Positions 4,014 to 41,480 of a DNA stretch of 64,000 nucleotides are shown one piece after another. The notes under the pieces are model-generated. The model made no database searches. It worked only from the letters and a program-made list of their open reading frames with translations, and was not told the origin of the DNA. Positions within the stretch are counted from its first letter, which is position 1. Each line of letters begins with the position of its first letter. The DNA is from Chiloscyllium plagiosum (lineage: Eukaryota), in NCBI RefSeq assembly GCF_004010195.1, contig NC_057753.1, positions 8,217,309 through 8,281,308 on the forward strand, in the 5' to 3' direction. A program made the translations under genes and the position numbers.

Positions 4014-4026
4014 TTGGTAGTTAAAA

Positions 4027-5530: not shown

Positions 5531-5534
5531 CGCA

Positions 5535-7146: not shown

Positions 7147-7324
7147 ATGGATCTGCATCTGAGGACCCGAGATTTGAACGCTACAACAATGGACAAGAGT
7201 TATTATTGGTCACTTTTCTATCTTACATATTATAACTGGCTGAAATTCGAACAGCGGGTTCAATATGTACTTGAAGTAATTCAAGGAGGTTACTATCCTA
7301 TCCTCGCTATCATTGGAGTTCCCG
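7147..7324 (+). CDS. GPR139/GPR142-like class A GPCR, copy A, coding exon 1 (N-terminus and start of TM1)
   Basis: MDLHLRTRDLNATTMDKSYYW...YYPILAIIGVP, then G|gtaggt phase-1 donor at 7325; N-glycosylation sequon NAT; only 4 nt differences from copy B exon 1. Confidence 0.85.
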
Positions 7325-7654
7325 GTAGGTTTCTTTATATCATTAATAATTCTGTATACCATGGTTCCTTCATTAATTGCCTATGACTAGAAAACTAAGC
7401 ACATATTTATTTTCACATCGAGTCATGTTCTGCATTCTCTAATGATTAATTACATTGCTCTACCTTACCAATCCCAGATACTGGGGTAATGTGTTCGCAT
7501 GTTGCTCACTCCGTTTGCTTATTTCTGAGCTGAGCAGAGTGACATTGCCTTTTTTGGGTCATTCAAAATTTAAAACACTCTCGTATCTCAATTCAAAACA
7601 CTGACCTATTGCACTTTATATTACTTATTCCCAAATATTCCTCAATGCAAATAG

Positions 7655-8730
7655 ATAGTAGAACACAGAACACTACAGCGCAGTACAGGCCTTTCGGCCC
7701 TCGATGTCGAGCCGACCTGTGGAACAAATCTGACGCCCAGCCAGACCATACCATTCCATTTTCATCGTTACGTTTACCCAGCGAACATTTAAATGCCCTT
7801 AAGTTGCAAACAGTGCGTTCCGCGCCCTTATTATTCTGACATCTAAAGACACTACCTCTGATATCTTTCTTATGTTTATCAAAACTCAATTTAAAGCTAA
7901 GCCCCCTTTACGAGGCATCATCATTCGAGGGAAATGGTTTTCACTGTGTACCTTCTCTAACTCTCTGATTATCTGATGTGTCCATTATGTGCCTCTCAAA
8001 CTTGTTCAACTGAAAACTGCCTCAAGTCCCTCAGCCTTTCCTCATAAGACCTTCCAGCCATACCAGGCAACATGCCAGTAAATATATTCTAAACCCTTTC
8101 CAAAGCTTCCACATCCTTCTTGTAATGCGGTGACCAGAACGTTACTCTTTACTCCAAGTGCGGCCGTACAAAGTTTTGTAAGCTGCATCATGATCTTGTG
8201 GCTCCGAAACTCAATCCATCTACCATTAAAAGGTAACACATCGTATGCCATCTTAACAACCTTATCAACCTGCGTTGTAACTTTTACAGACCTATGCATT
8301 TGGATGCCGATATCTCTGCTAATCTGCACTACCAAGAACCTTACCATTAGCCCAGCGTTCTTTATTCCTGTTGCTCTTTCCAAAGTGAATCAGCTCACTC
8401 TTTTCCGCATTAAAATCCATTTGCCACATCTCAGCCCATCTCTGCAGCTTACCTATGCCCCTCTCTAACCAGCAACATTATTCAGTACTATTCATAACTC
8501 TACCGATCTTCGCATCATCTGCAAATTTACTGATTCATCCTTCTACACCCTCATCTCGGTAAATTATATAATTGACCATCAGCAGTGGCCTACAATAGAT
8601 ATTTACGATACGCCACTCGTAACTGAACTGAAGGAAGATTTCCCATCCACCACACCCTCTGTCTTCTTTCAGCTAGCCAATTTCTGATCAAAACGTGAAG
8701 ATCTCACTCAACCCCATGCCTCCGCATTTT
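7655..8730 (-). mobile_element. CR1 3' portion in GPCR intron (paralog 32565-33640)
   Basis: Minus strand has KFADD, QVDKVVK.AY and a GAGGGCCGAAAGGCCTGTACTGCGCTGTAGTGTTCTGTGTTCTA tail. Confidence 0.85.
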
Positions 8731-9211
8731 GCTCAATAACGCTTGTTTTATTATTAAATCCAGACTTGACTCTTCCATGTTATCCAGGCCATCTTTCAGA
8801 TCGTTTCTTCCTAAACCAGAAGGTAGCCTTAATATTTCCACTAGTATTCAAACTCAGACGAAATACTGTTCATCCTTCAGGACTCTGCTCAACGATCACC
8901 ATTGTTTTGTGGTCTACAGGAGTTCAATTATTTTCAACCATCACATATTCCGACACTATTATAGTTTATCCAGATCACCGTGTATTTCATTCCCTCAGTA
9001 ACGTATTAATGTTGGGCATAGAACCCTTCAGTATCTCAGGAATTCTGAATGGTGCTGAATTCTGAGTTGACATTAATTCAGCTATGTCTGAAGAAATCTC
9101 ATAGTCAATCAAGAATTGCAAAAATGATTTCATCTTTATTGCATGAAGCAACCAAAATCAGACCCTTCAAATGAACTCGGTAAGCTTCACAACTCAACTT
9201 GGCTATTGTCT

Positions 9212-9350
9212 GACAAAGTTAAAAATCACATAACACAAGGTTATAGTTGAACAGGTTTATTTGGATGCAGAAGCTTTAGGTCTGAAAGCTTGTACTTCCA
9301 AATAAATCTGTTCGATTCTAACCTGGTGTTGCGGGAATTTTAACATTGTC
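9212..9350. repeat. Imperfect ~140-bp palindrome, probable inverted Penelope-like end pair
   Basis: gacaaagttaaaaatcacataacacaaggttatag...tttatttgga..aagcttt mirrored by aaagcttg..tccaaataaa...ctaacctggtgttgcgggaattttaacattgtc. Confidence 0.7.
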
Positions 9351-10079
9351 CAGCCAAGTTCAATATTGGTACCTTCAATATTATCAGGTTCATGATGGAA
9401 CTTGTCCCCGATTCTTCCAGTGATGTCTCTGGATGTTGTCAGCGTTGAATCTTGATAAAATGTCGTTCTGCAGAGTTCTGCTAAAAGAGAGTTCTGGTTT
9501 ACAAATCTCAAACAGAGTTTCACCCTTCAAGTCTACGATGCAATATATTGATGATTCTTTAGAGTCCTTCTATCCAAAGTATTTATTATTCTTTTGGGGT
9601 CTTTGAAACTGCAACATGTTTCATTGTCAGAAGAAGCTTCTTCGTTCGTTGTTGCATTTGTCCTCAACTAATTGTTGAAGATACAGTTTTACTCTATTTA
9701 ACTTCTTGAATGCTGCTGAAGGGCAATCAGTTGTTCTTTAATGCAGCAAATCAGCCACTCATGAAGCAGTTGGCAAGTCAGTTTCATTTACGCACTTCCG
9801 ACTTTTTTCCAAGACATAATTAATTGCGATCAATCACTCTATCAGAATGTGTATTTCCCGCTTAAAAGCTTATTTCTTACTGATGTATTGCTGACACATT
9901 CTGTCTGTGACAATTTATCTTTGGTTCAGTTATTCAATTCATGAGTAGTTATGGAAGCTTTGGCTTCTGTAATACCACAAGAAGTATTCCCTCTTTGATG
10001 CTCCGCTCGAATTAAGGGCATTATAAAACTCATGTGGTTGAGTCTATAGGATTAATTTAAATTATCTTACCGAGCCTGA

Positions 10080-12310
10080 CACCCCGGAGACGGCCCGTTT
10101 GCACAAACTGGTTCATGCTAATCAAAATGGCCATTGATGCTAACCTCATATCTATGCACTTGGCCTGTATCCTCCTATTCCTTTCCTTTCCTTGCATTTG
10201 TTCAAATGAATTTAAAAGCTGTTAATGTACCCACCTCAAAAACTTCCAATGGCAACTCATTTTATATGCATCCCAGCCTTTGTGCAAAAATGTTGTCCCG
10301 CAGGTTCACTTTTATTCATTCCCCTCTAACCTTAAACTGATGTTCTCTAGTCCCAACCCTGGCTTTTCATGCTCTGTTATGTCAGATATCCCCTCGTCTC
10401 CGGAACGCTAAAAAAAAATTCCTGGATTGTCTCCCTATAACTCATGCCTGAATCCGGGAAATATCCTTGTACATTTTTTCTACACTGTTTCCAGTTTAAT
10501 GACATCTTTCCGATAGCAAGGTGATCAAAACGGAACACAATGCTGCAAGTTGGGATTGAATGACGTCCTGTACAACTGCAAAATAACGTCAGAACTTCTG
10601 TGTCCGTGTCCTGACTGATGAAGTCCAGTGTGCCAATAGCCTTTTTCACTGCCCTGTCTACCTGTGACTCCACTTTCAGAGAACTGTGAACCTGAATTCC
10701 AGGGTCCCTCTGTTGAATTACTCTCTGTAAGGCACTTCCTTTCACCATGAACTCCTATCTTGATTCGACTTTCCAAAACGCAAGACCTCATGCTTACCAA
10801 TATTATACTCCATTTGTCATGTTTCAGCCCAAATGATCCTGATCCTGATATACTTTCTGACAACCTGCACTGTCCATGATAACGTCTATTTTATTGTCAT
10901 CTGCAAATTTACTGATCATACCTTGTACATTGCCATCCAAATTATTGATAGAATTACCAAAGACAATTGGGGAAGCACCAATCCCTGAGGCATTCGAATA
11001 GTAACGCTTTCCCAGTCCGACAAGAATCTTTCCAATATTTCCCTCTGTTTTCTACAATCAAGACAATTGTGTATCCAAGTTGCCAGCTCCCCGGAATGAC
11101 TTGCCATCGAACCTTCCGGAGAAGCCTGTCGTGTGCAATCTAATCAAAGAACTTGCTGAATTCAATATAGACTCCGTCTGCCGCCCTGCGCCGTTATGCA
11201 CGGTTTAAACTGTCCGGATTACTTTAAAACCAGCAACACAGAAGAGATTTATCCCGTGCTGCAATCTGTTAAAAATATCGAGTTGCCAAGAACTATGTAA
11301 AGTAAAATTCACAACTTTATTTCTGAAAGCATAACAGAAAAAAATTACTTACCACTATTTACAATTTCTTTCTCTGACCTATTTTTACGTTCCATTCTCT
11401 AATACTAGTCCAATAAAACTCACAATTAAGATTTACAAAACAATAATTCTAATCATAAAATCAAAACAGCCGTAGGTTTTTGTCTTCGGATCTAACTGTG
11501 TCTTTGTTTCTCCTTGTTAGGACTTTCTGCGTTACAGGTTACTAATCCAAAAGGTAGTTTAAAGAGAGACATTTTTCAAACTAGGATGCTAGGATGTAAC
11601 ATTTCTCCTGTCAGCTGTCCAATGTTCCCCCGGTCTTTTTCCCCCAGAGCATTGGATTGTGCCATTAGCCTTTAGGATTGTCAATATACTCAAATAAAAC
11701 TTGATTGGAAGTTGTTACTTTCTTCGGGGTATAATTGAAACTGATTGGACGAATCCGAATTTCTGTCTGACCCAATGGAAACGAGCTAATCACGTTGATT
11801 TACGAAGTGTTACATGCATTGTTGTCTTATTGAGAACACTGGGGGCTTTGCCCGGTACTTCTGCTGCTTTTAACTCTCTTAAGGTACACCCACATCTTCA
11901 GAACCTACTTAGTGACTTCGTGAAAGAACACTGACAAATTTGTGAGTCATATCTCCCACGTCCAAAGCCATGTTGAAAATTCATTTTCAAACCCTATGTT
12001 TCCAAATGCATGTATACCTTACCTCTCAGAATCTTCTCACTTAACTTACTGATCTATCATTCCCAGGATTTTGTATACAGCCTTTCTTGAATTAAAGCAC
12101 AACATTCGCTACCCTTATGTTTTCAGGTACCTCACCCATAACTGATTATGATACAGACATATCAGGCCAGGCCCCTGAACTGTCGTCTCCAGGCTCTTGC
12201 TGGATTCTAAAACCAATCTGATTAGGACCAGGAGATCTTTATTTCTTCATTTTTACTAATAAATCCAACGCATCCTGTTATGTAGACTATACCCACGATC
12301 CCAAGACTTC
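10080..12310 (-). mobile_element. Old CR1 fragment interrupted by a solo LTR (paralog about 34830-37050)
   Basis: Minus strand has QRDPGIQVHSSLKVESQVDRAVKKA and KFADD; RT-like sequence resumes after 11905. Confidence 0.75.
11192..11905 (-). mobile_element. Solo LTR (probable Gypsy-type), about 710 bp
   Basis: Interrupts CR1 RT; termini resemble TGTTATG...CATAACA (tgttatg intact in the paralog at 35944); AATAAA on minus strand near 11315; homologous to 21470-22048. Confidence 0.65.
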
Positions 12311-12859
12311 ATATCATTGTGTCATTCTACACCTATTGGAAACATTAATTTATGAACAGTAAGACATTGAATGGGGTTTGTTATTTCTACTTATTGCAAA
12401 CAGGACATAACCAGTTAATCGTCTACGATATTAGCTCAAAATCATAGTGTAGATGTCATGAAACTGCTCGGTTAGAGCGTGGATGGTAAAGGTCACAATC
12501 ATGCAGTGTTATTGTTCAGATGTTGTTAGAATCTGTGTTCAATGCCTTGAATTGCTTCTAAATGTTATTATTTTTGTACCGTGTAAGGTGAAGGCAATTC
12601 ATGACATTGGGGAATTTAGTAAGGTTAATGATGGAGAGTCCACACAACCTCTCATGTGGAAATGTACGTACATAAATTTACTTCATTGCTTGTACTGATA
12701 TGCTGAGTTCATGAATTCTCAATCGAGTTTTCTTTGAGCAGCTGTCGACTCCAATTATTGACTTAATTGCCCATCAGCATTTGCAACAACACTTGACTCT
12801 ACTGCATGAATAAAACTTGGTCATTGTATGCTACATAAGATAAATATGCAGAGCTTTAC

Positions 12860-13412
12860 AAGTAATGTATTAGCGTGGACAGAAGACTGGTCATCTCACA
12901 GAAAGCTATGAATAGGGTCAAACATTTGATTTTCTGGTTTGCTGGTGTGTCTCAGTGGTGAGCATTCGTAACACAATTGACTACAATTCACATGGGTGAT
13001 GTCGAGTTGCGACCAAATGCGAGTGTGTCCATGTTCGCAGATGACACTAAAATGAGGAGTATATCAAAGTGTGCAGAGTACTCTGAAAGTATGCAGAGGT
13101 TTTAGATAGATTAACTCAGCGTACAAAGGTCTGGCAGTTGAAACACAAACTTAGGAAATGCGACGGAATCCATTCTGGGGTAGAAAATAGCAGCAAAATG
13201 GACTATTATTGTTGCAGTTAACAATTGCAGCATGCTGACATGCAGAGGGACCTGGGTGTCCATGTGTATGAATCACAGAAAATTGGTTTGCTGGTGCAGC
13301 ACGTAATTACGAAGACAAACAGAGTATGGTTGTTCAATACCAAAGAGATGGGGATGAAAAATAAGGAGCTTTTGAAACAACTGTACAGGATGCTAGTGAG
13401 GGCACACCACAT
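12860..13412 (+). mobile_element. Old decayed CR1 RT fragment (paralog about 37740-38400)
   Basis: MFADDTK (ttcgcagatgacactaaa) and QRDLGVHVYESQK motifs. Confidence 0.75.
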
Positions 13413-14061
13413 CCTCACATCCCAAGGCAAGAGTGTAAATGATATGTGGAGCTTGTTCAAGGAGCAACTATTGAGTGTCCTTGATAATTATGTACCTGTC
13501 AGGCAGGGAGGAAAGGGTCGTGCGAGGGAGCCGTGGTTTAATAAGGAATTGGAATCCCTTGTAAAATGGAAGAGGGCGGCCTATCTCAAGATGAGACGTG
13601 AAGGTTCAATTGGGGCGATTGAGAGTTATAGGGTAGCCAGGAAGGACCTGAAGAGAGAGCTAAGAGCAGCAAGGAGGGGACATGAAAGGTCCTTAGTCGG
13701 TAGGATTAGGGAAAACCCTAAGGCTTTCTATAGGTATGTTAGGAATAAAAGAATGACTAGGGTAGGAATAGGTCCAGTCAAGGATAGTAGTGGGAAGTTG
13801 CGTGTGGAGGCGGAAGAGATTGGGGAGACACTGAATGAATACTTTTCTTCAGTATTCACTCAGGAACAGGGCATTGTCGGCGATCAGAATACTGAGTCAC
13901 AAATCAGTAGAATGGATGGCTTTGAGGTATGTACAGAAGAGGTGTTGGAAATCCTGGAAAAGGTGAAAATAGATAAGTCCCCTGGGCCTGATGGCATTTA
14001 TCCTAGGATTCTCTGGGAAGCAAGGGAGGAGATTGCAGAGCCATTGGCCTTGATCTTTATG
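13413..14061 (+). mobile_element. Young CR1 insertion specific to copy A intron, running into gap
   Basis: Uninterrupted ORF2 frame (MWSLFKEQLL...EPWFNKE...ENPKAFYRYV...KSPGPDGIYPRIL); absent at the paralogous site near 38250. Confidence 0.85.
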
Positions 14062-15041
14062 NNNNNNNNNNNNNNNNNNNNNNNNNNNNNNNNNNNNNNN
14101 NNNNNNNNNNNNNNNNNNNNNNNNNNNNNNNNNNNNNNNNNNNNNNNNNNNNNNNNNNNNNNNNNNNNNNNNNNNNNNNNNNNNNNNNNNNNNNNNNNNN
14201 NNNNNNNNNNNNNNNNNNNNNNNNNNNNNNNNNNNNNNNNNNNNNNNNNNNNNNNNNNNNNNNNNNNNNNNNNNNNNNNNNNNNNNNNNNNNNNNNNNNN
14301 NNNNNNNNNNNNNNNNNNNNNNNNNNNNNNNNNNNNNNNNNNNNNNNNNNNNNNNNNNNNNNNNNNNNNNNNNNNNNNNNNNNNNNNNNNNNNNNNNNNN
14401 NNNNNNNNNNNNNNNNNNNNNNNNNNNNNNNNNNNNNNNNNNNNNNNNNNNNNNNNNNNNNNNNNNNNNNNNNNNNNNNNNNNNNNNNNNNNNNNNNNNN
14501 NNNNNNNNNNNNNNNNNNNNNNNNNNNNNNNNNNNNNNNNNNNNNNNNNNNNNNNNNNNNNNNNNNNNNNNNNNNNNNNNNNNNNNNNNNNNNNNNNNNN
14601 NNNNNNNNNNNNNNNNNNNNNNNNNNNNNNNNNNNNNNNNNNNNNNNNNNNNNNNNNNNNNNNNNNNNNNNNNNNNNNNNNNNNNNNNNNNNNNNNNNNN
14701 NNNNNNNNNNNNNNNNNNNNNNNNNNNNNNNNNNNNNNNNNNNNNNNNNNNNNNNNNNNNNNNNNNNNNNNNNNNNNNNNNNNNNNNNNNNNNNNNNNNN
14801 NNNNNNNNNNNNNNNNNNNNNNNNNNNNNNNNNNNNNNNNNNNNNNNNNNNNNNNNNNNNNNNNNNNNNNNNNNNNNNNNNNNNNNNNNNNNNNNNNNNN
14901 NNNNNNNNNNNNNNNNNNNNNNNNNNNNNNNNNNNNNNNNNNNNNNNNNNNNNNNNNNNNNNNNNNNNNNNNNNNNNNNNNNNNNNNNNNNNNNNNNNNN
15001 NNNNNNNNNNNNNNNNNNNNNNNNNNNNNNNNNNNNNNNNN
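14062..15041. other. Assembly gap (980 N)
   Basis: N run; hides the intron end and the first ~387 bp of exon 2 of GPCR copy A. Confidence 1.
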
Positions 15042-15562
15042 GGTATTCGCTGGTGAACAACCCCTGGTTTTGTAATGTATCAAGTGGTGTTTTTGGCTCT
15101 CGGGTCTGGATCACTGTCGAGTTCATCCACCACATTGCAACCCCCGGCCTCCCTTTTCTCCTCATTCTGTTGCTTAATATTTTCACAGTCAGACATATTT
15201 TTGTGACCAGTAGAGTTCGCAGAAGACTCCGCCATCATGACAACAGTGTGCGATCCAGAGACCCAGAGATGGACAATCGAAAGAAATCTATCATTTTACT
15301 GTTCGTTATCTCGTCAAATTTCATTGTCTTATGGTCAATGTTAATGATTTATTCCATCTGGAATCGGATGTATAATTTTGGATATGAATCTATATATCTA
15401 CATTGGTTTGTTCAGGAATTAGGCTTCATGCTGCAGCTCATCAGTTGCTGCACAAACACCGCAATTTATGCTGTGACACAGACTAAGTTCAGACATCAGC
15501 TAAAGAACGTGCTGAAATATCCCTTCGCTCAAATTAACAAAATGATCAAATTCACTCATTGA
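15042..15562 (+). CDS. GPR139-like GPCR copy A, visible 3' part of exon 2 (ECL2, TM5-TM7, C-tail)
   Basis: YSLVNNPWFC...PFLLILLLNIFTVRHI...RDPEMDNRKKSIILLF...CCTNTAIYAVTQTKFR; aligns without gaps to 40960-41480 with 7 nt differences; stop TGA at 15560-15562. Confidence 0.88.
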
Positions 15563-17414
15563 TCAACAGGTCAGAAGTTTAAAAATTTCATTTTATAATT
15601 TCAGCAGTTCAGGGTCCTCCTTGCTACATTAACAGACCGAGGAAGATGCCTTTTGTGATGAAATTGCAATGTGCTTGATACTGTTGTTTGGCGATATTTG
15701 TGGCGTGATTTGTCGCCAAGGAACAGAAGTCGGATCAATCCTGATGTTGTCTTGTTTTTTTTTATTTTTCCCCAATAGACAGCTATATGGTTGTTTCCCT
15801 TATTTGTGTTGATTCCAATGGTCTGGCTCAATTACCGTCTGCTTCGAAATCAACTCCAATACTAACCATAATCTCACAGAGACACTCGTATATAAAAGGA
15901 ACCGAAGCCTGTCCATCAAACTTCGCCCTCACTCCGATTCGACAGAATATGATCTCAATCCTGCATCTCAGAATTTGAGATTGCCATTGACCTTTCTATC
16001 ATCTTTACCTCATGATTATTTATTATCAGTACCACCTTCCATCACACGACTTGTCGACTGTATCTGAAGCTCTAAGGGTCTGTGAATACAAGCCATGGCG
16101 TACAGTAATCTCTGCAAACACTCACATCGCATTGGTGCAGACAGTCAATAGCAATACAAACCAGCGTTGTGGCATTTTGAAAATGGAAGTGTATCATGTC
16201 AACTGGCAATATTTAATTTCCATGAATGTCGCATAAGCAAAAGTAAGTCAAGTAGATTTCACTTTTAACAAAGTCACATTAGTACCTTTCTTCACATCTA
16301 TTCTGCCACAAAGTCCTTAAAAGTTGTGATGGTGATTATCCCTTTGACCAATGTTACTTTCATTGGCATGTTTTCCTCCTTTGTGCCCCACTTTCTCCTT
16401 GTCATTATGCTAGCACATTTGTTATGTTTAAATCCGCTGAAACTCTTCCGAAGTCGAGGAATCTTGGAGATTATAATCAATGGACTGACGATCAGAGGTG
16501 CCATTTCTTTTGAGAGCATAAAGTGTCGGCTTTTGATCCCGGAAACCTGAGGGCCTACACTTCCACAAGGCGCGGTTTTATTTTGTTTTTTCCATGATTT
16601 TTGGCACTGTTTGAAGTGAATTACCGCTTACACATTCTAATGATCAATTATGTATGTGATGTTAAATACGTTCTTTTTGTTTGAAAATAAAAAAAATTCA
16701 AGCTTTCCAACATTTCATTAATTTTCAGTATCCATGTCCCAGAGCCAATGTGTAAAAGACCAACCCGAGCACAGTTTCTCTTTTTTTCTTCTCAAATTTG
16801 GCAGGTGGACTCTTTCTGTCAGTGGTCATTTTATTAGTTAACTTTGAAGGCAAGTTACAAAACTGAGGTATGCAAGAGACTGGTCAGTGTTGCGGGTGAA
16901 CAATTCTGTGGAATCATGAATAATGTCATACAGCAAACCACCAAGTGACAATACTGTAGACGAATCGAAGACTTGAACTCTTCCTTTCACAGAACATCGA
17001 AGAACAATGCTGCAAATGTATCGAAACCTGGATTCCTCCAGAGACAGAACAATTTCAAAGACCAGACTTTTAAAAAATGAAGATCACATTTTATCTTTTT
17101 TGTTCATTCTGAAATGTTAAAATGTATAAAGTCCCAGAATTCAGAAAATGCTTTCCGTAGAACATTTAAATTCTTATGAGTTTACGACGCTCTTTAGCGC
17201 TCTGACACTCTCTGTTAGAGAAGAATTAGAATTGGCGATATGTGTTGAAAACAATGAGCGGTCCACTGACAGCGTGATTTAAGGGTTTATGGATGACCAC
17301 AGTTTGATTTTGCATAGGGTTTGTGGTTCAATGCCGCTCAGAAATGGATCTTTGATCATTCTTAAAGTAACTATCAAACAAACGGACTCGCCATGTACTT
17401 ACTAGAAATCTAAA

Positions 17415-17546
17415 GAGAAAACCCGAAAGAACTGAGGATGCTGGGAATCAAGGACAAAAAATTATGGGGAATACTTCAACCGGTCTGTTTGTACTTTTGG
17501 GAAAAATCAGAGTTTATGTTTCACTTTAATGACCCTTCTTCAGAAA
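17415..17546 (-). mobile_element. Old Penelope-like end remnant with decayed hammerhead motif (paralog about 43333-43464)
   Basis: Minus strand ttCTGAAGAAGGGTCATTAAAGTGAAACATaaactctgatttttccc...cccagcatcc. Confidence 0.5.
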
Positions 17547-18662
17547 TCATGGCCGCTTGGAAAATATTGCTTTTCATGCAGACAGTCTCCATGTCTCCAC
17601 AAGGGTATTTCAGGGCATTTGCATTTGAATAATAAAACTCATTAAGGACAGTTACTGCTCGAAGCATTAACACACTGATATCATGCTCATGGTCATTATG
17701 CTGTAGTATTGCAAGATAGAGTCTCCACATGCATTACAGCGATTATAATTGAAGCATTAAAATTTGGATGTAATGTTAAGACCAAGCTTACACTTTCGAA
17801 ACTATATAGCAGAAGACCACACTTGTTTTAATGACGATTGCTCTCACTGGTCAGAGTGCAAATTGATAATCAGCGACCAGGCTGCTTATTTGAAACGCGA
17901 TGTTGATTTAAAAGTGTTATTAAAACTTTGCCTACAAAAGCAACGTAACAGTAATGAGAATTAACATCGACCAAGATTGTAAGATTGATAGCCATCTCAT
18001 GATGAAAAGTGAAAGTATGTGATCGGTGGTAAAGTTTACTGAGACACAACAAGTGACTGAAATACACAACAAACATCTCTGGCGTCAGACACTTTGCTAT
18101 CCAGGGCCTATGCATCTTCCTCAAAATGTAGAGAAATAATTGAGAATGATGTTTTAAATTTGAATGAAGTTATGAAAATGGCGGCCAATTGACAGTCCAG
18201 AGCTTTCAGTTCTAAGAATGATCTAAAAATAGGTTGTGGAGGGAGATATGCAATGAATTCCAGAACATGAGGTCGATTCAGGCACATTCATAAGTACATT
18301 ATATACTCCTTTCCATTTGCATGGTTTGATTCTGAAAACCTTCAAACTCTCACCTCAAAGAGCTGTTTTTGTTTTACCATTTTTACCTGACACCGCAGCG
18401 TCAGAGGATTGTGTGGGGTGGTGGGGGGGGGGAAGGTTCAGTTTCCATGACCTTTTTCCAGAATACCTCCTCCTCTAATAGCGTTAAATGACATTGATGT
18501 TTAAAGTATTGAGTAAATAGGTGCATCACTAACCATTCAACCCATCATGCCTGAACCGTCTGTTTGAATGAGTAATTCACTGAGTACCATTCTTATGCTT
18601 TCCCATGTTTCTCCTGAACTCGGTCCCTCAGCACTACGTTATGCTCCACCGCTGCAGCTTTA

Positions 18663-26149: not shown

Positions 26150-26350
26150 AAGCAGAGAGAGGGAGAGAGGGAAAGTGACAGAGTGAGAGAGAAAGCGAGG
26201 GGGAGAGGGAGGTAGAGTGTGGGAGAGGGAGAGAGAGTGAGGGAGAGAGGGTAGAGGAGGAGGGTTGCAGAGAGTGGGTGAGAGGGAGCGGGAGACAGAA
26301 AGGGAGAGGAACGGGTGGGAGAGAAAGGGGAGAGTGGGAGAGGGAGACAG
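26150..26350. repeat. GA-rich low-complexity polypurine tract
   Basis: Degenerate (GA)n/GGGAGA run. Confidence 0.85.
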
Positions 26351-26886: not shown

Positions 26887-26899
26887 ACAAGAACAAACA

Positions 26900-29362: not shown

Positions 29363-29364
29363 TA

Positions 29365-30358
29365 TTCGCCTCCTTCCAATCCTCCAGTACGACTGGAGTG
29401 AGGAGGCAAAAGTCTTCGCCAGGTGTTTAGCAACCTCATTTCGTGCTTTCCAGAGCAGCTTAGGATAATTCTTGTCTGGCCCTAGGGACGGCACGGTTAG
29501 CACTGCTGCCTCATAGCGCCGGAGACCCGGGTTCAATTCCCGCCTCAGGCGACTGACTGTGTGGAGTTTGCACGTTCTCCCCGTGTTTGCGTGGGTTTCC
29601 TCCGGGTGCTCCGGTTTCCTCCCATAATCCAAAGATGTGCAGGTCAGCTGAATTAGCCTTGCTTAATTGCCCCTAGTGTTAGGTAAGGGGTAAATGTAGG
29701 GGAATGGGAGGGTTGCCCTTCGGCAGGTCTGTGTGGACTTGTTGGGCCGAAGAGCCTGTTTCCACACTGTAATGTGATCTAATCTAAGCTTCCACTTATC
29801 TTTCTTAATGTTGGCCAAAATTACCAGCACACCAACTTCATCAATCTTGATCTGGTCAAGCCTGCATCCCAGCTGTTCAATGTTTTCATTCGCAACAAAG
29901 TCCCTTTCCTTAGTGACCACCGAAACAAAAACAAACTAATTTAGGGCTTCCACTATCTGCTCAGACTCAAAGCTTCAACTCCCTCCGCTATCCCTGATCG
30001 TCCCTTCATTCTCCCTGATCATTCTCTTATTCCTCATGTATGAGTAAAATGCCTTGGAATTCTCCCTAATTCTCTTGCCAAGCCTTTTCTGTGCCCCTCC
30101 TGGCTTTTATCAGTGCATTTCTCAGCTCCATTCTAGTAAGCTTGTAATCCTCTAAAGCTGTGCTCGATACTTGCTTCCTGCAACTTACGCAAGCTGCCTT
30201 CTTCCTTTCGATGAGAAGCTCCTCTTTTCTCGTCATGCAAGGTTCCTTAATCTTGGCCTTTCTTACTTGTTTCAGAGGAAAAAATTCGTGCAACACTCGC
30301 GCAACTGCTCCTTAAATAGTCTCCACAGTTATGCTGTGCACTTTCTATGGAACAATTG
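29365..30358 (-). mobile_element. CR1 fragment (paralog of 5535-6220) interrupted by a SINE
   Basis: Same translations as the unit A fragment. Confidence 0.8.
29490..29787 (+). mobile_element. Young HE1-type SINE specific to unit B
   Basis: B box GGTTCAATTCC and tail atctaatctaa; the empty site agggac|ttatc is seen near 5659. Confidence 0.92.
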
Positions 30359-31397
30359 CAACACTGAAGATGTCACTTACAAATGGGACAAAACATCTGG
30401 AAACCACCTTCCTAGCTGGACGGACATGCCCATAGCAACTGCAACCAGCACCCCAGCTACAAATATTTACACAGACCTTAAATAAATAACACGACAGTGC
30501 TGACGTATGCATCTCAATGCAGAGGAGCTGCATGCGATGGCCTAGTGGCATTATTCAAGGCTCAGGAAATGTTTGCTGTTATTGCGCTCAGATCTGGCTA
30601 TGGCAGATAGTGGACTTTGAATTCAATATAAATGTGGATTTAAAAATCTAATGACAACAATGAAACTGACGTTGATTGTCAGCGATAGAATTAAAAATAT
30701 CTGATTCACTAATATTCTGTAGGGAAGAAAACTTGATTGGCCGACATGTTAAGTCCAGACCCTCAACACTCTGGTTAGCTCTCAACTGTATTCTGGATAT
30801 TCAGAGATGAGCAGTGAATGCTGGCCGATCCAAAGACGCCCGTACACTCTGAATGAACTTTCAGGAAAAGGGAAACTTGAAGCCATTTCTCAATTTGCCC
30901 ACCAAATTCCTCCTTTGTGTTTGAATCTCAGCACAATCCATGACAGGACTTGAAAACTGCAAACAAAATTCTGGTTTAAAACGACCTGTCAATCAAAGAA
31001 ACAGAAGAAGAACATGACCAGCAAGGGACTCTGCTCTAGTACCATGTCAGACAGATCCAGTGGTTGAGCATGTCAGTTTAAAGCTCGTACTCACTTCAAA
31101 ATTGTCATTAACAGTACCAATGATTTTATTAATTTATGCACAAAATATAGTCAAGAAGTGGAAATAAGCTTGCACCTGAAGTACAATTCGGTTATTTATA
31201 AACTAGTTATGAGAAGAGAAAAGATATTTTGTGATCAAGGTTTAGATAATAAGATAATGTGTTTATTTTTGTAATCTGAATTATCCTAGCCTTTATACAG
31301 TGGTAGCAATGTACAGCACGGAAACACACCCTTCAGTGCAACTCGTTCATGCCATCTAGTTATCCCAAATTAATCGAGTTCCATTTGCCAGATGTCA

Positions 31398-31612
31398 GAG
31401 ACAGGTTCTTTACTCAGAGAGCGTTAAGGTCGTGGAATGCCCTACCTGCCATTGTAATAAACTCAGCCACATTAGGGAGATTTAAACAATCCTTGGATAA
31501 GCACATGGATGATGATGGGATAGTGTAGGGAGACGAGCTGTGAATTGTTCACAGGTCGGTGCAACATTGATGGCCGAAGGACCTGTTGCGTGCTGTATTG
31601 TTCTATGTTCTA
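31398..31612 (+). mobile_element. Short CR1 3' end within the unit-B-only upstream block
   Basis: RFFTQRALRSWNALP, then GGCCGAAGGACCTGTT...TGTTCTATGTTCTAT tail. Confidence 0.8.
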
Positions 31613-32055
31613 TCCTCTGGCATTGTGCTGAGTTGTCTGCTGTTCCAAGGTGGTCGACACGCCTTTTTTATTCATAGCTTGAAAACTTTCAAACCCTCAT
31701 GTCCCCTGTAATATTTCGTATCCAAGGAAAAATGATTTTGCTCAAGTTCTCGACAATTTCCATCATTGCATTGACTAACGACGCTCATAAATCCCATCCA
31801 AAATCGATGCATTTTCCACAGTGAGAGGAAAAGAAGCGCAATATTGAAATGTAAATGATTTCATCCTGTTTGTTCAGAGACTATAATTAATGGCATACTC
31901 CATGGATGCTTATTGGGAGTCTAGAGGATTACACTCTTCTATTAATAAGGCACTGCTCTCAACCTGTTATTCAACACGGCCAATGGGAGCATCACATACG
32001 AAAACAGATAGATAACGAAGAGAATCTGATATTGACAAGCATTTGTATGACAACG

Positions 32056-32233
32056 ATGGATCTGCATCTGAGGACCCGAGATTTGAACGCTACAACAATG
32101 GAGAAGAGTTATTATTGGTCACTTTTCTATCTTACATATTATAACTGGCTGAAATTCGAACAGCGGGTTCAATATGTACTTGAAGTAATTCAGGCAGGTT
32201 ACTATCCTATCCTCGCTATCGTTGGAGTTCCCG
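32056..32233 (+). CDS. GPR139/GPR142-like GPCR, copy B, coding exon 1
   Basis: MDLHLRTRDLNATTMEKSYYW...YYPILAIVGVP, then G|gtaggt donor at 32234; joins exon 2 in frame to give GVPVNAITIFILL. An alternative in-frame ATG exists at 32047. Confidence 0.87.
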
Positions 32234-32564
32234 GTAGGTTTCTTTATATCATTATTAATTCTGTATAACATGGTTCCTTCATTAATTGCCTATGACTAGA
32301 AATCTAAGCACATATTTATTTTCACATCGAGTCATGTTCTTCATTCTCTAATGATTAATTACATTGCTCTACCTTGCCAATTCCAGATACTGAGTTAATG
32401 TGTTCGCATGTTGCTCACTCCGTTTGCTTATTTCTGAGCTGAGCAGAGTGACATTGCCTTTTTTGGGTCATTCAAAATTTAAAACACTCTCGTATCTAAA
32501 TTCAAAACACTGACCTATTGCACTTTATATTACTTATTCCCAAATATTCCTCAATGCAACTAGA

Positions 32565-33640
32565 GAGTAGAACACAGAATACGACAGCGCAGGACAGGCC
32601 CTTCGGCCCTTGATGTTGAGCCGACCTGTGGAACAAATCTGACGCCCAGCCAGACCATACCATTCCATTTTCATCGTTACGTTTACCCAGCGAACATTTA
32701 AATGCCCTTAAGTTGCAAACAGTGCGTTCCGCGCCCTTATTACTCTGACATCTAAAGACACTACCTCTGACATCTTTCTTATGTTTATCAAAACTCAATT
32801 TAAAGCTAAGCCCCCTTTACTAGGCATCGTCATTCGAGGGAAATGGTTTTCACTGTGCACCTTCTCTAACCCTCTGATTATCTGATGTGTTCATTTTCTG
32901 CCTCTCAAACTTGTTCAACTGAAAACTGCCTCAGGTCCCTCAGCCTTTCCTCATAAGACCTTTCAGCCATACAAGGCAACATGCCAGTAAATATATTCTA
33001 AACCCTTTCCAAAGCTTCCACATCCTTTTTGTAATGCGGTGACCAGAACTTTAATCTTTACTCCAAGTGCGGCCGTACAAAGTTTTGTACAGCTGCATCA
33101 TGATCTTGTGGCTCCGAAACTCAATCCATCTACCATTATAAGGTAACACATCGTATGCCATCTTAACAACCTTATCAACCTGTGTTGTAACTTTTACAGA
33201 CCTATGCATTTGGACGCAGATATCTCTCTGCTAATCTGTACTACCAAGAACCCTACCATTAGCCCAGCGCTCTTTATTCTTGTTGCTCTTTCCAAAGAAA
33301 ATCAGCTCACTCTTTTCCGCATTAAAATCCATTTGCCACATCTCAGCCCGCCTCTGCAGCTTAACTCTGCCCCTCTCTAACCAGCAACATTATTCAGTAC
33401 TATTCATAACTCTACCGATCTTCGTATCATCTGCAAATTTACTGATTCATCCTTCTACACCCTCATCTCGGTAAATTTTAAAATTGACAATCAGCAGTGG
33501 CCTACAACAGATATTTGCGATACACCACTCGTAACTGAACTGAAGGAAGATTTCCTATCAACCACACCCTCTGTCTTCTTTCAGCTAGCTAATTTCTGAT
33601 CAAAACGGCAAAATCGCACTCAATCTCATGCCTCCGCATT
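32565..33640 (-). mobile_element. CR1 3' portion in GPCR copy B intron
   Basis: Paralog of 7655-8730. Confidence 0.85.
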
Positions 33641-33964
33641 TTGTTCAATAACTCTTGTTTTATTATTAAATCCAGACTTGACTCTTCCATGTTATCCAGG
33701 CCATCTTTCAGATCGTTTCTTCCTAAACCAGAAGGTAGCCTTAATATTTCCACTAGTATTCAAACTCAGATGAAATACAGTTCATCCTTCAGGACTCTGC
33801 TCAGCGATCACCATTGTTTTGTGGTCTACAGGAGCTATGTCTGAAGAAATCTCATAGTCAATCAAGAATTGCAAAAATGATTTCATCTTTATTGCATGAA
33901 GCAACCAAAATCAGACCCTTCAAATGAACCCGGTAAGCTTCACAACTCAACTTGGCTATTGTCT

Positions 33965-34103
33965 GACAAAGTTAAAAATCACATAACACAAGGTTATAGT
34001 TGAACAGGTTTATTTGGATGCAGAAGCTTTAGGTCTGAAAGCTTGTACTTCCAAATAAATCTGTTCGATTCTAACCTGGTGTTGCGGGAATTTTAACATT
34101 GTC
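33965..34103. repeat. Imperfect palindrome (paralog of 9212-9350)
   Basis: Essentially identical to the unit A copy. Confidence 0.7.
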
Positions 34104-35943
34104 CAGCCAAGTTCAATATTGGTACCTTCAATATTATCAGGTTCATGATGGAACTTGTCCCCGATTCTTCCAGTGATGTCTCTGGATATTGTCAGCGTTG
34201 AATCTTAATAAAATGTCGTTCTGTAGAGTTCTGCTAAAAGAGAGTTCTGGTTTTCAAATCTCAGAGTTTCACCCTTCAAGTCTACGATGCAATATATTGA
34301 TGATTCTTTAGAGTCCTTCTATCCAAAGTATTTATTATTCTTTTGGGGTCTTTGAAACTGCAACATGTTTCATTGTCAGAAGAAGCTTATTCGTTCGTTG
34401 TTGCATTTGTCCTCAACTAATTGTTTGAAGATACAGTTTTACTCTATTTAACTTCTTGAATGTTGCTGAAGGGCAATCAGTTGTTCTTTAATGCAGCAAA
34501 TCAGCCACTCATGAAGCAGTTGGCAAGTCAGTTTCATTTACGCAATTCCGACTTTTTTCCAAGACATAATTAATTGCGATCAATCACTCTATCAGAATGT
34601 GTATTTCCCGCTTAAAAGCTTATTTCGTACTGATGTATTGCTGACACATTCTGTCTGTGACAATTTATCTTTGGTTCAGTTATTCAATTCATGAGTAGTT
34701 ATGGAAGCTTTGGGTTCTGTAATACCACAAGAAGTATTCCCTCTCTGATGCTCCCCTCGAATTAAGGTCATTATAAAACTCATGTGGTTGAGTCTATAGG
34801 ATTAATTTAAATTATTTTACCGAGTCTGACACCCCGGAGACGGCCCGTTTGCACAAACTGGTTCATGCTAATCAAAATGGCCATTGATGCTAACCTCATA
34901 TCTATGCACTTGGCCTGTATCCTCCTATTCCTTTCCTTTCCTTGCATTTGTTCAAAAGAATTTAAAAGCTGTTAATGTACCCACCTCAAAAACTTCCAAT
35001 GGCAACTCATTTTATATGCATACCAGCCTTTGTGCAAAAATGTTGTCCCGCAGGTTCACTTTTATTCATTCCCCTCTAACCTTAAACTGATGTTCTCTAG
35101 TCCCAACCCTGGCTTTTCATGCTCTGTTATGTCAGATATCCCCTCGTCTCCGGTACGCTAAATAAAAAATCTCCTGGCTTGTCTCCCTATAACTCATGCC
35201 TGAGTCCGGAAAATATCCTTGTACATTTTTTCTACACTGTTTCCAGTTTAATGACATCTTTCCGATTGCAAGGTGATCAAAACGGAACACAATGCTGCAA
35301 GTTGGGATTGAATGACGTCCTGTACAACTGCAAAATAACGTCAGAACTTCTATGTCCGTGTCCTGACTGATGAAGTCCAGTGTGCCAATAGCCTTTTTCA
35401 CTGCCCTGTCTACCTGTGACTCCACTTTCAGAGAACTGTGAACCTGAATTCCAGGGTCCCTCTGTTGAATTACTCTCTGTAAGGCACTTCCTTTCACCAT
35501 GAACTCCTATCTTGATTCGACTTTCCAAAACGCAAGACCTCATGCTTACCAATATTATACTCCATTTGTCATGTTTCAGCCCAAATGATCCTGATCCTGA
35601 TATACTTTCTGACAACCTGCACTGTCCATGATAACGTCTATTTTATTGTCATCTGCAAATTTACTGATCATACCTTGTACATTGTCATACAAATTATTGA
35701 TAGAATTACCAAAGACCATTGGGGAAGCACCAATCCCTGAGGCATTCGAATAGTAACGCTTTCCCAGTCCGACAAGAATCTTTCCAATATTTCCCTCTGT
35801 TTTCTGCAATCAAGACAATTGTGAATCCAAGTTGCCAGCTCCCCGGAATGACATGCCATCGAACCTTCCGGAGAAGCCTGTCGTGTGCAATCTAATCAAA
35901 GAACTTGCTGAATTCAATATAGACTCCGTCTGCCGCCCTGCGC

Positions 35944-36651
35944 TGTTATGCACGGTTTAAACTGTCCTGATTACTTTAAAACCAGCAACACAGAAGAGAT
36001 TTATCCCGTGCTGCAATCTGTTAAAAATATCGAGTTGCCAAGAACTATGTAAAGTAAAATTCACAACTTTATTTCTGAAAGCATAATCGAAAAAAAATTA
36101 CCACTATTTATAATTTCTTTCTCTGACCTATTTTTACGTTCCATTCTCTAATACTAGTCCAATAAAACTCACAATTAAGATATACAAAACAATAATTCTA
36201 ATCACAAACTCAAAACAGCCGTAGGTTTTTGTCTTCGGATCTAACTGTGTCTTTGTTTCTCCTTATCAGGACTTTCTGCGTTACAGGTTACTAATCGAAA
36301 AGGTAGTTTAAAGAGAGACATTTTTCAAACTAGGATGCTAGGATGTAACATTTCTCCTGTCAGCTGTCCAATGTTCCCCCGGTCTTATACCCCAGAGCAT
36401 TGGATTGTGCCATTAGCCTTTAAGGTTGTCAATATACTCAAATCAAACTTGATTGGAAGTTGTTACTTTCTTCGGGGTATAATTGAAACTGATTGGACGA
36501 ATTGGAATTTCTGTCTGACCCAAAGGAAACGAGCTAATCACGTTGATTGACGAAGTGTTACATGCATTGTTGTCTTATTGAGAACACTGGGGGCTTTGCC
36601 CGGTACTTCTGCTGCTTTTAACTCTTAAGGTACACCCACATCTTCAGAATC
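35944..36651 (-). mobile_element. Solo LTR (paralog of 11192-11905)
   Basis: Begins tgttatgcac on the + strand and ends catcttcagaat; interrupts CR1 RT. Confidence 0.65.
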
Positions 36652-37070
36652 TACTTAGTGACTTCGTGAAAGAACACTGACAAATTTGTGAGTCATTATC
36701 TCCCACGTCCAAAGCCATGTTGAAAATTCATTTTCAACCCCTATGTTTCCAAATGCATGTATACCTTACCTCTCAGAATCTTCTCACTTAACGTACTGAT
36801 CTATCATTCCCAGGATTTTGCATATAGCCTTTCTTGTATTAAAACACAACATTCGCTACCCTCATGTTTTCTGGTACCTCACCCATAACTGATTATGATA
36901 CAGACATATCAGGCCAGGCCCCTGAACTGTCGTCTCCAGGCTCTTGCTGGGTTCGAAAACATATCTGATTAGGACCAGGAGATCTTTATATCTTCATTTT
37001 TACAAATAAATCCAAGGCCTCCTGTTATGTAGACTGTACCCACGACCCCAAGACTTCATATCATTGTGTC

Positions 37071-37106
37071 ATTCCTGAAGAAGGGCCTGTGCCCGAAACG
37101 TCGAAT
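37071..37106 (+). ncRNA. Minimal type I hammerhead ribozyme motif (predicted)
   Basis: AUUC-CUGAAGA-A-GGGC-CUGU-GCCC-GAAA-C-GUC-GAAU: core boxes, 4-bp helix II, 4-bp helix I, loopless palindromic ACGU helix III. Confidence 0.65.
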
Positions 37107-37201
37107 CTCCTGTTCCCTGGATGCTGCCTGACCTGCTGTGCTGTTCCAACAATAAAGTTTCAACTTTGATCTCCAGCATCTGCAGACCTCACTTTCTCCT
37201 C
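37075..37201 (+). mobile_element. 127-bp Penelope-like mini insert with 9-bp TSD, unit-B-specific, in GPCR intron
   Basis: TSD gtgtcattc at 37066-37074 and 37202-37210; a single copy at the empty site near 12319-12327. Confidence 0.85.
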
Positions 37202-39354
37202 GTGTCATTCTACACCTATTGGAAACATTAATTTAGGAACAGTAAGACATTCAATGGGGTTTGATATTTCTACTTATTGCAAACAAGACAGAACCAGTTA
37301 ACCTTCTCCGATATTAGCTCTAAGTCATAGTGTAGATGTCACGAAACTGCTCGGTTAGAGCGTGGATGGTAAATGTCACAATCATGCAGTGTTATTGTTC
37401 AGATGTTGTTAGAATCTGTGTTCAATGCCTTGAATTGCTTCTAAATGTTATTATCTTTGTACCGTGTAAGGTGAAGGCAATTCATGACATTGGGGAATTT
37501 AGTAAGGTTAATGATGGAGAGTCCACACAACCACTCATGTGGAAATGTACGTACATAAATTTACTTCATTGCTTGTACTGATATGCTGAGTTCATGAATT
37601 CTCAATCGAGTTTTCTTTGAGCAGCTGTCGACTCCAATTATTGACTTAATTGCCTATCAGCATTTGCAACAACACTTGACTCCACTGCATGAATAAAACT
37701 TGGTCATTGTCTGCTACATAAGATAAATATGCAGAGCATTACAAGTAATGTATTAGCGTGGACAGAAGACTGGTTATCTCACAGAAAGCTATGAATAGGG
37801 TCAAACGGTTGATTTTCTGGTTTGCTGGTGTGTCTCAGTGGTGAGCATTCGTAACACAATTGACTACAATTCACATGGGTGATTTCGAGTTGCGACCAAA
37901 TGCGGGTGTGTCCATGTTCGCAGATGACACTAAAATGAGGAGTATATCAAAGTGTGCAGAGTACTCTGAAAGTATGCAGAGGTTTTAGATAGATTAACTC
38001 AGCGTACAAAGGTCTGGCAGTTGAAACACAAACTTAGGAAATGCGACGGAATCCATTCTGGGGTAGAAAATAGCAGCAAAATGGACTATTATTGTTGCAG
38101 TTAACAATTGCAGCATGCTGACATGCAGAGGGACCTGGGTGTCCATGTGTATGAATCACAAAAATTTGGTTTGCTGGTGCTGCACGTAATTACGAAGGCA
38201 AACCGAATATGGTTGTTCAATCCGAAAGGGACGGAGATGAAAAATAAGGTTTTGGGTTCCTTACTTGTGAAGTCATATCTTGGAATTGGAGGAGGTGCGG
38301 AGAATGTACACGAGATTGATTCCAGAATAGATGGGGTCGTCTTATGGTGAGGAATTGATTAAACGTGGAGCTTACAAATTAGAATTGAGATGAATGGGGT
38401 ATCCTGTCGTAAATGATGCACAGTATGCAATGCGTTCTCACCAGGATCTTGTGTAGCATCTCACTCCCCTTATACGATATTCCCCTGACAATATGAATCA
38501 ACATTTGAACATTCTTATGCTCAAGAAGGATTCACTGATTTTTCATCAGAAGTATTCCTAACCTTCTGAGATTTTCCAGCAATCCTTGATTTTTGTTGCA
38601 TATATCCTGCTCTTTATGGGAAAGACGTTTGAATATGAAATATGTTTTTTCTCTTCTTTCAAAACAGTAGTCGAGAAGTGGTAATTATATTCTTCCTGCT
38701 TCTATGTCGCAGTCGTGAGGCAGTGAACAACCCCTGTTGCGTCATGAAACGACCCAGAGGGACTGAATGGACTTATGATCTTCCTGCCAGTCAATGTGGC
38801 ATTTTTTTCAAATTCCTCCTTTGGAAATAAATCGAGCTTCAATCCAGGTTAAGACACAGGCTGATTCTAAAAATGCCTCACACCTGAAATGCATTGTCAG
38901 ACTTGAGATGTCACTTCTTCTATACTGGTAAAACGTATCTCATGACAGTGAGTTGAAAGAAACTCTCTGATTTCCATATTAATCATTCTCCATTCAAAAC
39001 GATTAAAGGTTTTACAGCCATCTCAGGTTTCATCAATATATTCGCATCAGTTGTTTGACTTGGAATTGTAAATTCCACTTTGCAGAGTTAGTTTCTTTTC
39101 TGCTTCTCATCACCTGCGTGATACTCCATCTGTGGTCTCAACAAATTGTAATTTTAGGTATGTTGGCAATGTGGGCAAATAATTGGGTATCAGCTTGTCT
39201 TAGGTTCAGATTTCAGAACAAATGAGTCAGTTTTCTTTTAAACCAAACTAAAAGTAAGTTGTTTTATTACCAAAACAAAAAACAGTAACACGGAACCAAA
39301 GATAAGGGGCAAGGTGGTTAGATTTACGACATGTGCATTAATATTTTTATTTTG

Positions 39355-39860
39355 AGAAACACATGCATGCGTGTGCGTGCGCACACACACACATTCATAT
39401 TCGCACAGACACGCACTCAGACTCACGTATATGCTCACACAGAAGCACCCACACGCAGACGCAATTGATACGTATACATGGATAAACATTCATATGGACA
39501 CGTTCATATGCACGGACACAAATGACAGACACGCATGTACGCATTCACACTGAGATACAAACATATCCCACTCACTCACATACACAGACACTCGCAAAGG
39601 GAAAATAAACACAACGGACAAAGACACACACAAATGGATAAACATTCACATGCATAAACGCATAAAAGTACAGACAAACATTCAGAAAAGGACAGTCGCA
39701 CAAGGCACACACAAGGCATTCTCGTGCATACATGGATTCAGGCATAGATATCCACACAAACAAACTGTCACATTCGCACACACATACTGCCGCTTACTTC
39801 TCGAAACACATAAACATTATGTATACAAAACTACATATTGTAAACACACACACAGACTAC
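39355..39860. repeat. Degenerate (CA)n-rich low-complexity tract in intron
   Basis: Decayed CACA/CAGACA repeats. Confidence 0.85.
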
Positions 39861-40572
39861 CAGGCATAAAACAATCGCACAGAATAGTGAAAAAATATTC
39901 TGTTGAGAATCAAAAGTTTGGAACGTGCAGAGTGTCACATTTAAATAATTTTACCTATGTTTCTGAAAAATCATGGAATAGGTCGAACAAAAACGTAACC
40001 GAAATTATCCTTAACATTCCATGATTGCAATATATTTGAATACCCATAAGTCAGTTAAACAAGCTAAGTGACAAGCTGCACTGTAAAGAGGTCCCGTCCA
40101 GTGAGGAGTAGACATTCCTTCATAATGTGAACACGTGATTAAGAGGTCTTTGCAAAACACCTCGCGTGTGTATGTTTATATCGTTACCTGTCGCGCATTG
40201 ATGACTATTTGGTCCAAATGACATAAATCTCCAACATCTTCAGTGAACTACGCCAGAATAATTCAGGGCAGCAAAAGTCTGGTTTTACTTTCTATATTTG
40301 TAAATGTAAAGCAATGAACCCTGTTGGTTCTCGACTGATCGAGAAATTATGCCTTCTTTTTGATACGTGTCTTTTATTACGAAGGGAGTGATCTTTGGTT
40401 TTCCATTATTTTTATTGAAATAATTAAGTTCTTCACGTTTGTTATTTCAGCTCGAACTGCTTCAATTAATCATTGAATACACGGAAACTTTTAAAAATAT
40501 AGGTCCTTAATCAAACTGATATTGTTGTCCCCAGGCTGATGTATATAATGTATTTGTTTATCTTTCTCACAG

Positions 40573-41480
40573 TTAATGCAATCACGATCTTCATCCTGCT
40601 TAATACAAATTGTGGATTGTCTCCATGTGTTAGTCGTTATCTGGTGGCCATGGCAGTGGCAGATCTACTGGTCATTATCCTCGATCTGATCATGAGACAC
40701 ATTCCGATTGTTTATCAGGAACAGTTTTATTTCTTGATATTCATCCCCATATGTAATATCCACGCCGTCCTGCTTTATGCAGTCACTGACTGTTCTGTCT
40801 GGTTCACCGTCACTTTCACCTTTGATCGATTTGTGGCCATTTGTTGCCAGAAACTGAAGAGTAATTATTGCACTGGGAAAATGGCGGCTGTGATTTTGGG
40901 AACAGTGACTGTGCTGAGCTGCTTAAAGAACGTTTTCTGGTACTTTATGCTCACACCTTGGTATTCGCTGGTGAACAACCCCTGGTTTTGTAATGTATCA
41001 AGTGGTGTTTTTGGCTCTCGGGTCTGGATCACTGTCGAGTTCATCCACCACATTGCAACCCCCGGCCTCCCTTTTCTCCTCATTCTGTTGCTTAATATTT
41101 TCACAGTCAGACATATTTTTGTGACCAGTAGAGTTCGCAGAAGACTCCGCCATCATGACAACAATGTGCGATCCAGAGACCCAGAGATGGACAATCGAAA
41201 GAAATCTATAATTTTACTGTTCGTTATCTCGTCAAATTTCATTGTCTTATGGTCAATGTTAATGATTTATTCCATCTGGAATCGGATGTATAATTTTGGA
41301 TATGAATCTATATATCTACATTGGTTTGTTCAGGAATTAGGCTTCATGCTGCAGCTCCTCAGTTGCTGTACAAACACCGCAATTTATGCTGTGACACAGA
41401 CTAAGTTCAGACATCAGCTAAAGAACGTGCTGAAATATCCCTTCGCTCAAATTAACAAAACGATAAAATTCATTCATTGA
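40573..41480 (+). CDS. GPR139/GPR142-like GPCR, copy B, coding exon 2 (TM1-TM7, C-tail); spliced CDS 1086 nt, 361 aa
   Basis: Acceptor tttatctttctcacag at 40572; YLVAMAVADLL (TM2), C at top of TM3, FDRFVAIC, ECL2 WFC, PFLLILLLN (TM5), CCTNTAIY (TM7 variant of NPxxY); open to TGA. Confidence 0.93.

Follow-up and report, generated by a model that had tools for sequence, protein, structure and literature searches.

A 64,000-nucleotide stretch of the Chiloscyllium plagiosum genome (NCBI RefSeq assembly GCF_004010195.1, contig NC_057753.1, positions 8,217,309 to 8,281,308 of the forward strand; hereafter the window, within which all coordinates are counted) consists of repeat-rich vertebrate DNA interrupted by five N gaps, and carries two copies, A and B, of a receptor gene related to GPR139 and GPR142 (Table 1). 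No other gene was found in the window, and a tBLASTn search that used 8 family and sister proteins as queries detected no further copy there. Both genes sit in one larger duplicated unit that takes in their flanks, with blocks that are 94-99% identical from 5658 onward. Here we describe these genes and the large receptor family to which they belong.

Copy B has two exons in a stop-free frame with a predicted product of 361 amino acids; its splicing was inferred from sequence and homologues, not from reads, and its start codon is supported because shark relatives begin at the same place. Copy A exon 1 aligns to residues 1-60 of whale-shark relatives and ends in a donor identical to that of copy B. 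This bears out a preliminary description of the locus, which had proposed two same-strand paralogs with a phase-1 intron in the first transmembrane helix (TM1; GVP/VN): the donor is common to both copies and the complete GT-AG intron is present in B. That description had also listed a DRF motif and NTAIY; NTAIY is found in both copies and DRF in copy B only, the corresponding codons of copy A lying within an N gap. In all, 387 of the 1086 coding bases of copy A, together with its acceptor, fall inside this gap, so the claim that neither gene is disabled is valid for the 699 comparable bases only and does not establish copy A as intact. The last shared anchors on either side enclose 2,711 bases in B versus ~695 bases of a different repeat plus 980 N in A; the repeat, which resembles long interspersed nuclear elements (LINEs), has no Pfam match and no counterpart at the equivalent place in copy B. 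Tandem Repeats Finder detected no 26-base satellite upstream of the genes (3500-7400 or 27000-32300).

Table 1. Features of the window (ECL, extracellular loop; ORF, open reading frame).
Feature	Position	Strand	Remarks
Duplicated unit A	4204-18663	+	matches 28057-44762
TATA-like hexamer, copy A	6973-6978	+	174 bases upstream of ATG; candidate only
Copy A exon 1	7147-7324	+	Met1 to Pro59 and first base of Val60; N-terminus, outer TM1
LINE-like piece, copy A intron	13367-14061	+	alignment break versus copy B; resembles other window repeats
N gap in copy A	14062-15041		covers acceptor and codons 60-189
Copy A exon 2, 3' part	15042-15562	+	ECL2 to stop; frame open
Duplicated unit B	28057-44762	+	matches 4204-18663
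TATA-like hexamer, copy B	31882-31887	+	identical hexamer, again 174 bases upstream of ATG; candidate only
Copy B exon 1	32056-32233	+	
Copy B intron	32234-40572	+	GT-AG, phase 1, 8,339 bases; Val codon split after GVP
Copy B exon 2	40573-41480	+	rest of TM1 to stop; C3.25, DRF, ECL2 Cys, W6.48, NTAIY
First AATAAA past copy B stop	42604-42609	+	candidate polyadenylation signal
Second segmental duplication	44759-50545 and 58144-64000		~94% identical, offset ~13.5 kb; receptor exon not found within
ORF and its twin in second duplication	48721-49185 and 62297-62650		no Pfam match
CR1-type LINE pieces	1561-2484 and 56426-57097	+	
CR1-type LINE pieces	23129-26044 and 50974-51687	-	
Short tandem repeats	2600-2691, 55041-55122, 26155-26310		31-base, 42-base and GA-rich units; away from receptor starts

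The copy B protein matched Pfam 7tm_1 at 57.6 bits (cut-off 30.5; E=1.8e-15), and its model (predicted template modelling score 0.72; mean predicted local distance difference test score 71.5) had seven helices and class A receptors as its top fold matches. With N1.50, D2.50 and R3.50 also in place, the window protein is, as judged from its sequence and modelled fold, a class A G-protein coupled receptor (GPCR). Its nearest relative among receptors with solved structures, to which the comparison was confined, was human GPR139, both by sequence (E=1e-5; with a family profile 1.3e-18, next receptor 8e-13) and, narrowly, by fold (E 1.4e-5 vs 2.2e-5 for TRHR). As the best solved match by sequence and fold, GPR139 (PDB 7VUG, 7VUI and 9M42), together with GPR142, shares with the window protein two exons, the lack of P7.50, an aromatic 3.33, H5.42 and W6.48. 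The preliminary description had singled out NTAIY in place of NPxxY; human GPR139 has F at 7.50 and both sister lineages described below also lack P7.50, so this is a trait of the whole clade and we rejected it as a special feature. Having GPR139 as nearest human receptor and lacking P7.50 are both features that place the protein in a GPR139/GPR142-related clade.

The window protein is nevertheless not a GPR139 orthologue. Identity to GPR139 is 21-22%, where GPR139 orthologues retain 70% from human to zebrafish (PMC7318219). In GPR139, Trp and Phe are bound by F109, H187, W241, R244 and N271, with a positive charge at 6.51 being critical (PMC5430874, PMC8807744) and R244 and N271 required for agonists as well; these residues align to Y128, H218, W286, L289 and F317 of the window protein, which thus retains the aromatic pocket floor and has L and F in place of the polar pair R6.51/N7.39. 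Throughout the family, a basic residue at 6.51 occurred in 2 of 85 rows and N7.39 in 1 of 85. Unlike GPR139, the window protein also has M at the P6.50 position and a Cys at both 3.25 and ECL2 (the human chain aligns no Cys at 3.25), and the shark family has hundreds of copies versus one. The earlier view that this is no true GPR139 orthologue is therefore borne out by identity, binding residues and copy number, and we rejected orthology. We likewise rejected Trp/Phe binding as in GPR139; the suggested Trp/Phe-like ligand, bound as in GPR139, is likely wrong because R6.51 and N7.39 are not kept.

The family itself proved large and restricted to cartilaginous fishes. An exon 2 search returned 2,121 of 2,964 candidates (90% clusters) at E<=1e-10, and among the 120 matches listed, 119 came from ten shark species, mostly under the name 'probable G-protein coupled receptor 139'. 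A filter-free search gave 111 clusters (50% identity) at E<=1e-30; when 21 of these cluster representatives were looked up, 20 were from sharks, skates, a stingray or the chimaera Callorhinchus. The window gene lies nearest whale, zebra and bamboo shark genes (77%; tree support 100/99). In DNA run X1 of this species, 2,280 contig records were placed on 3 kb at 85% likeness, with a summed depth of 193,104 at a TM3 site and 96,059 at a TM7 site, against 21-22 in the 3' flank. After division by the flank value and by a further 31 to allow for overlapping words, the depth implies a floor of ~280 copies (~8,600 without dividing by 31); since summed depth is not a copy number and takes in pseudogenes and fragments, we state the result as hundreds or more, which is what these data suggest for this species. 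A metagenome scan for family DNA confirmed 22 of 87 stretches, all distant (24-46%) and none in the family, and was not used further.

We built trees of the chondrichthyan family, two low-copy lineages and invertebrate rows, leaving out true GPR139 and GPR142. In a 35-row tree the 24 chondrichthyan rows formed one clade (support 96/91) and each low-copy lineage was supported at 100/100; in a 40-row tree support for the chondrichthyan family was 91/77. All three lineages grouped at 100/100 against two invertebrate rows, while the branching order among them was weak (83/49 in the 40-row tree, no order in the 35-row tree). Together with the 2,121 matches and the depth in X1, this clade substantiates the large, clustered, lineage-restricted expansion first proposed; the alternative of one or two copies grouping as GPR139 is clearly contradicted.

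The first low-copy lineage, obtained with a coelacanth query (P0251; 145 of 1,739 candidates), is represented in sharks, fishes, amphibians and reptiles; the 120 matches listed included neither mammals nor birds. This conserved GPR139-like gene (P0251, P0288-P0405) has an ERF motif, C or S at 6.48 and R6.51, and is twice annotated as a part or isoform of TMEM183A. The second (P0245; 25 of 1,675 candidates) yielded 20 amphibian clusters plus one sturgeon, along with four chondrichthyan rows at greater distance; its amphibian-sturgeon gene (P0245, P0421-P0440) has a near-invariant pocket in which F3.33, W6.48, P6.50, K6.51 and N7.39 are kept, making it a good candidate for an amino-acid ligand. 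Position 6.51 was K in 21 of 21 P0245 rows and R in 24 of 24 P0251 rows. By sequence comparison, the nearest relatives of the shark family are these low-copy non-mammalian lineages and not GPR139 or GPR142 themselves. Rinne et al. (2019) gave the name GPR210 to three previously unnamed sets that lie close to GPR139/142 and occur in coelacanth, gar and fishes, and the portion of that paper available to us mentions neither sharks nor cartilaginous fishes (PMC6504862). Both low-copy lineages probably belong to these GPR210 sets; unlike the shark family, they have a near-fixed pocket with K or R at 6.51.

Receptors that bind differing ligands and signal through one G protein should vary more in their outer than in their inner half, and low-copy orthologues should not. 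Consistent with the first expectation, column entropy in 70 family rows was 2.11 bits in the outer helix halves and 1.15 in the inner, against 0.74 bits in both for 15 rows of the P0251 lineage. At matched divergence, 50 of 55 listed horn-shark paralogues (5 partial rows dropped; mean difference 0.207) gave an outer/inner ratio of 1.72, a ratio of extracellular to intracellular loops (ECL/ICL) of 2.57 and a pocket difference of 0.207, versus 0.60, 0.58 and 0.019 for 20 amphibian orthologues (mean difference 0.216). The near-complete whale-shark rows (12 of 25) gave 1.92 and 2.74 for the two ratios, and 24 rows of the P0251 lineage 1.04 and 0.95. In the whale shark, 21 of the 30 most variable sites were in ECL2, ECL3 and the tops of TM6 and TM7. 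Pocket positions were fixed inside a subfamily and different among subfamilies, and C3.25 and the ECL2 Cys were each present in 83 of 85 family rows and DRF in 78 of 85. The paralogues thus conserve the face turned to the G protein and diversify in the pocket and outer loops, with the low-copy lineages as controls. This is the pattern of the receptor repertoire that had been proposed, and such variation is the predicted mark of ligand diversification.

Over the 699 comparable bases (178+521) of copies A and B our recount agreed exactly with the 11 differences (7 replacement, 4 silent) reported before. These correspond to 7 of 531 replacement sites and 4 of 162 silent sites (ratio 0.53; Fisher p=0.29), a ratio that is uninformative on selection and indistinguishable from neutral. 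The seven replacements lie at residues 16, 47, 56, 257, 322, 356 and 360, none of them a pocket position, and therefore the two copies probably bind one ligand. Alternatively, A and B could be two alleles of one locus set in tandem by the assembler: the copies are 99% identical around exon 2, N gaps occur both within the units and between them, and X1 has a single contig per place in the 3' flank. We judge this quite unlikely: identity is 95.6-96.8% over most of the 5' half, repeat insertions differ, and the X1 flank is unlike either copy, with 4 of 19 listed variants equal to A. Even if right, it leaves the family result unaffected.

Tentatively, and with slightly less than even confidence, we propose that A and B arose by recent tandem duplication within a single subfamily of a chondrichthyan class A GPCR repertoire that numbers several hundred receptors and is in chemosensory use. 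The repertoire would have arisen from a low-copy gene of the GPR139/GPR142-related clade. Its subfamilies would bind different extracellular ligands, for which small peptides or varied metabolites are likelier candidates than free Trp or Phe, and would act through one shared signalling route, which by analogy with GPR139 may be Gq or Gi. The step of which we are least sure is the use: sensing of the outside chemical world in a chemosensory epithelium, beside the V2R family. Of the sensory or immune repertoire suggested in the preliminary description, variation pattern and family size speak for a repertoire, and either use is inference only.

In vertebrate chemoreceptor repertoires, birth-and-death growth and a variable pocket on a fixed signalling face are the general pattern, and the nematode srw family originated from peptide receptors. 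The shark family resembles OR, TAAR, V1R/ORA, V2R, MRGPR/FPR and srw in tandem birth-and-death growth, lineage restriction and this pocket arrangement; it differs in being a separate class A branch with a TM1 intron. It is large, clustered and lineage-restricted, with a diversified pocket on a conserved intracellular face. A chemosensory role is further favoured, though still at slightly less than even likelihood, by the few shark OR genes and by matches to Srw, the nematode chemoreceptor model, in some family clusters (16% and 42% of members; a lead only). Sharks have 2 canonical and 6 OR-like genes (PMC11979771).

Besides the limits of summed depth given above, several points weigh against this proposal. 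The paralogues were selected for their closeness to the query, and alignment columns are not independent; protein data, moreover, do not separate positive selection from relaxed constraint or conversion. No RNA run was indexed as containing the exon, which is evidence neither way. In single-cell run X5 (~2% of the run), 93 of 12.96 million records fell on the gene, all in coding exon, with 1 at 99+% identity, 6 at 95-99% and 86 under 95%; because 86 of 93 were under 95%, we assigned these reads to paralogues. First mates over TM2-TM3 were mostly on the + strand and preceded by poly-T tails, suggesting antisense or internal priming, and near the stop the opposite read direction prevailed. Because there are hundreds of genomic copies, background could explain the X5 counts. 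Run X6, from the same sample, placed 0 of 8.3 million records. A catshark top-50 'brain and olfactory epithelium' list, as far as its source was available, contains no GPCR; this negative is weak, as known odorant receptors are absent from it too. Run X7 (guessed to be RNA) held 34 family contigs and no flank. Separately, 16 X5 RNA reads depart from receptor sequence at ICL2 (window position 40852) into one unrelated sequence, which suggests that a truncated or chimeric family copy is transcribed from another place in the genome.

All the repertoire evidence would also fit with immune or barrier surveillance, in which leukocyte, mast-like, skin, gill or gut sensory-cell receptors detect microbial or damage peptides, as mammalian FPRs and MRGPRs do. 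The placement of hypervariable sites in ECL2, ECL3 and the TM6/TM7 tops resembles that of peptide receptors, the clade has relatives among invertebrate peptide receptors (PMC8514136, as far as available), and cartilaginous fishes are without MAS1 and its relatives in the text available of PMC8455134. The X5 reads are few and ambiguous, and we regard this use as somewhat unlikely.

Largely neutral amplification is improbable in our estimate. Repeat-rich segments would simply be recopied, most copies being redundant, silent or decaying while the outer face drifts under relaxed constraint; in keeping with this, the duplicated unit takes in flanks and LINE pieces, a gene-free second duplication adjoins it, A and B differ without measurable selection, the intactness of copy A is not established, and almost no reads match either copy. 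Against it, deep subfamilies with open frames span sharks, batoids and chimaera (in database proteins filtered for open frames), the conserved cysteines and DRF persist at the frequencies given above, and the pocket is invariant within a subfamily and differs between subfamilies. Endogenous reproductive or nervous signalling, with sperm, gonad or brain peptide receptors expanded by sexual or neuronal-identity selection, is very doubtful: the clade counts the insect sex-peptide/MIP receptor among its relatives (PMC8514136, in part) and shark V2R genes are expressed in testis and rectal gland too (PMC11979771, in part), but hundreds of pocket variants would require as many endogenous ligands, none of which is known.

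Elsewhere in the window, the CR1-type LINE pieces contain an esterase-like ORF1 (Lipase_GDSL_2) and endonuclease and reverse transcriptase fragments; the element at 22-26 kb looks young and is interrupted by N gaps.

The literature searched, which took in few subscription journals, held no description of a shark GPR139-like family; nor did the available parts of PMC12294341 and PMC13113109, and 12 of the 24 supplementary files of the whale-shark paper, the ones searched, gave no match. An earlier unnoticed mention is possible, since the genes stand openly in RefSeq with an automatically assigned name. The family is real, and as a receptor repertoire apparently undescribed. A family of several hundred receptors whose pocket has diversified runs counter to the 'relative paucity' of GPCRs that the whale-shark paper states for cartilaginous fishes (PMC8455134, in the part seen). 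The low-copy amphibian-sturgeon gene, in which F3.33, W6.48, K6.51 and N7.39 are kept, offers a convenient starting point for finding the ancestral ligand. Very few OR, TAAR and ORA genes have been counted in cartilaginous fishes (PMC11979771, in the part seen), and the family could answer the long-standing question of how sharks, with such a small set of known receptors, sense many chemicals. It is possible, if short of probable, that cartilaginous fishes have here a main chemoreceptor (or non-self sensor) family of their own, one that numbers hundreds to thousands of genes, derives from a GPR139-related peptide-receptor clade independently of OR, TAAR, V1R and V2R, and is masked by the name 'probable GPR139'. 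If true, this would overturn both the view that these fishes have few GPCRs and that of near-exclusive V2R smelling in sharks.

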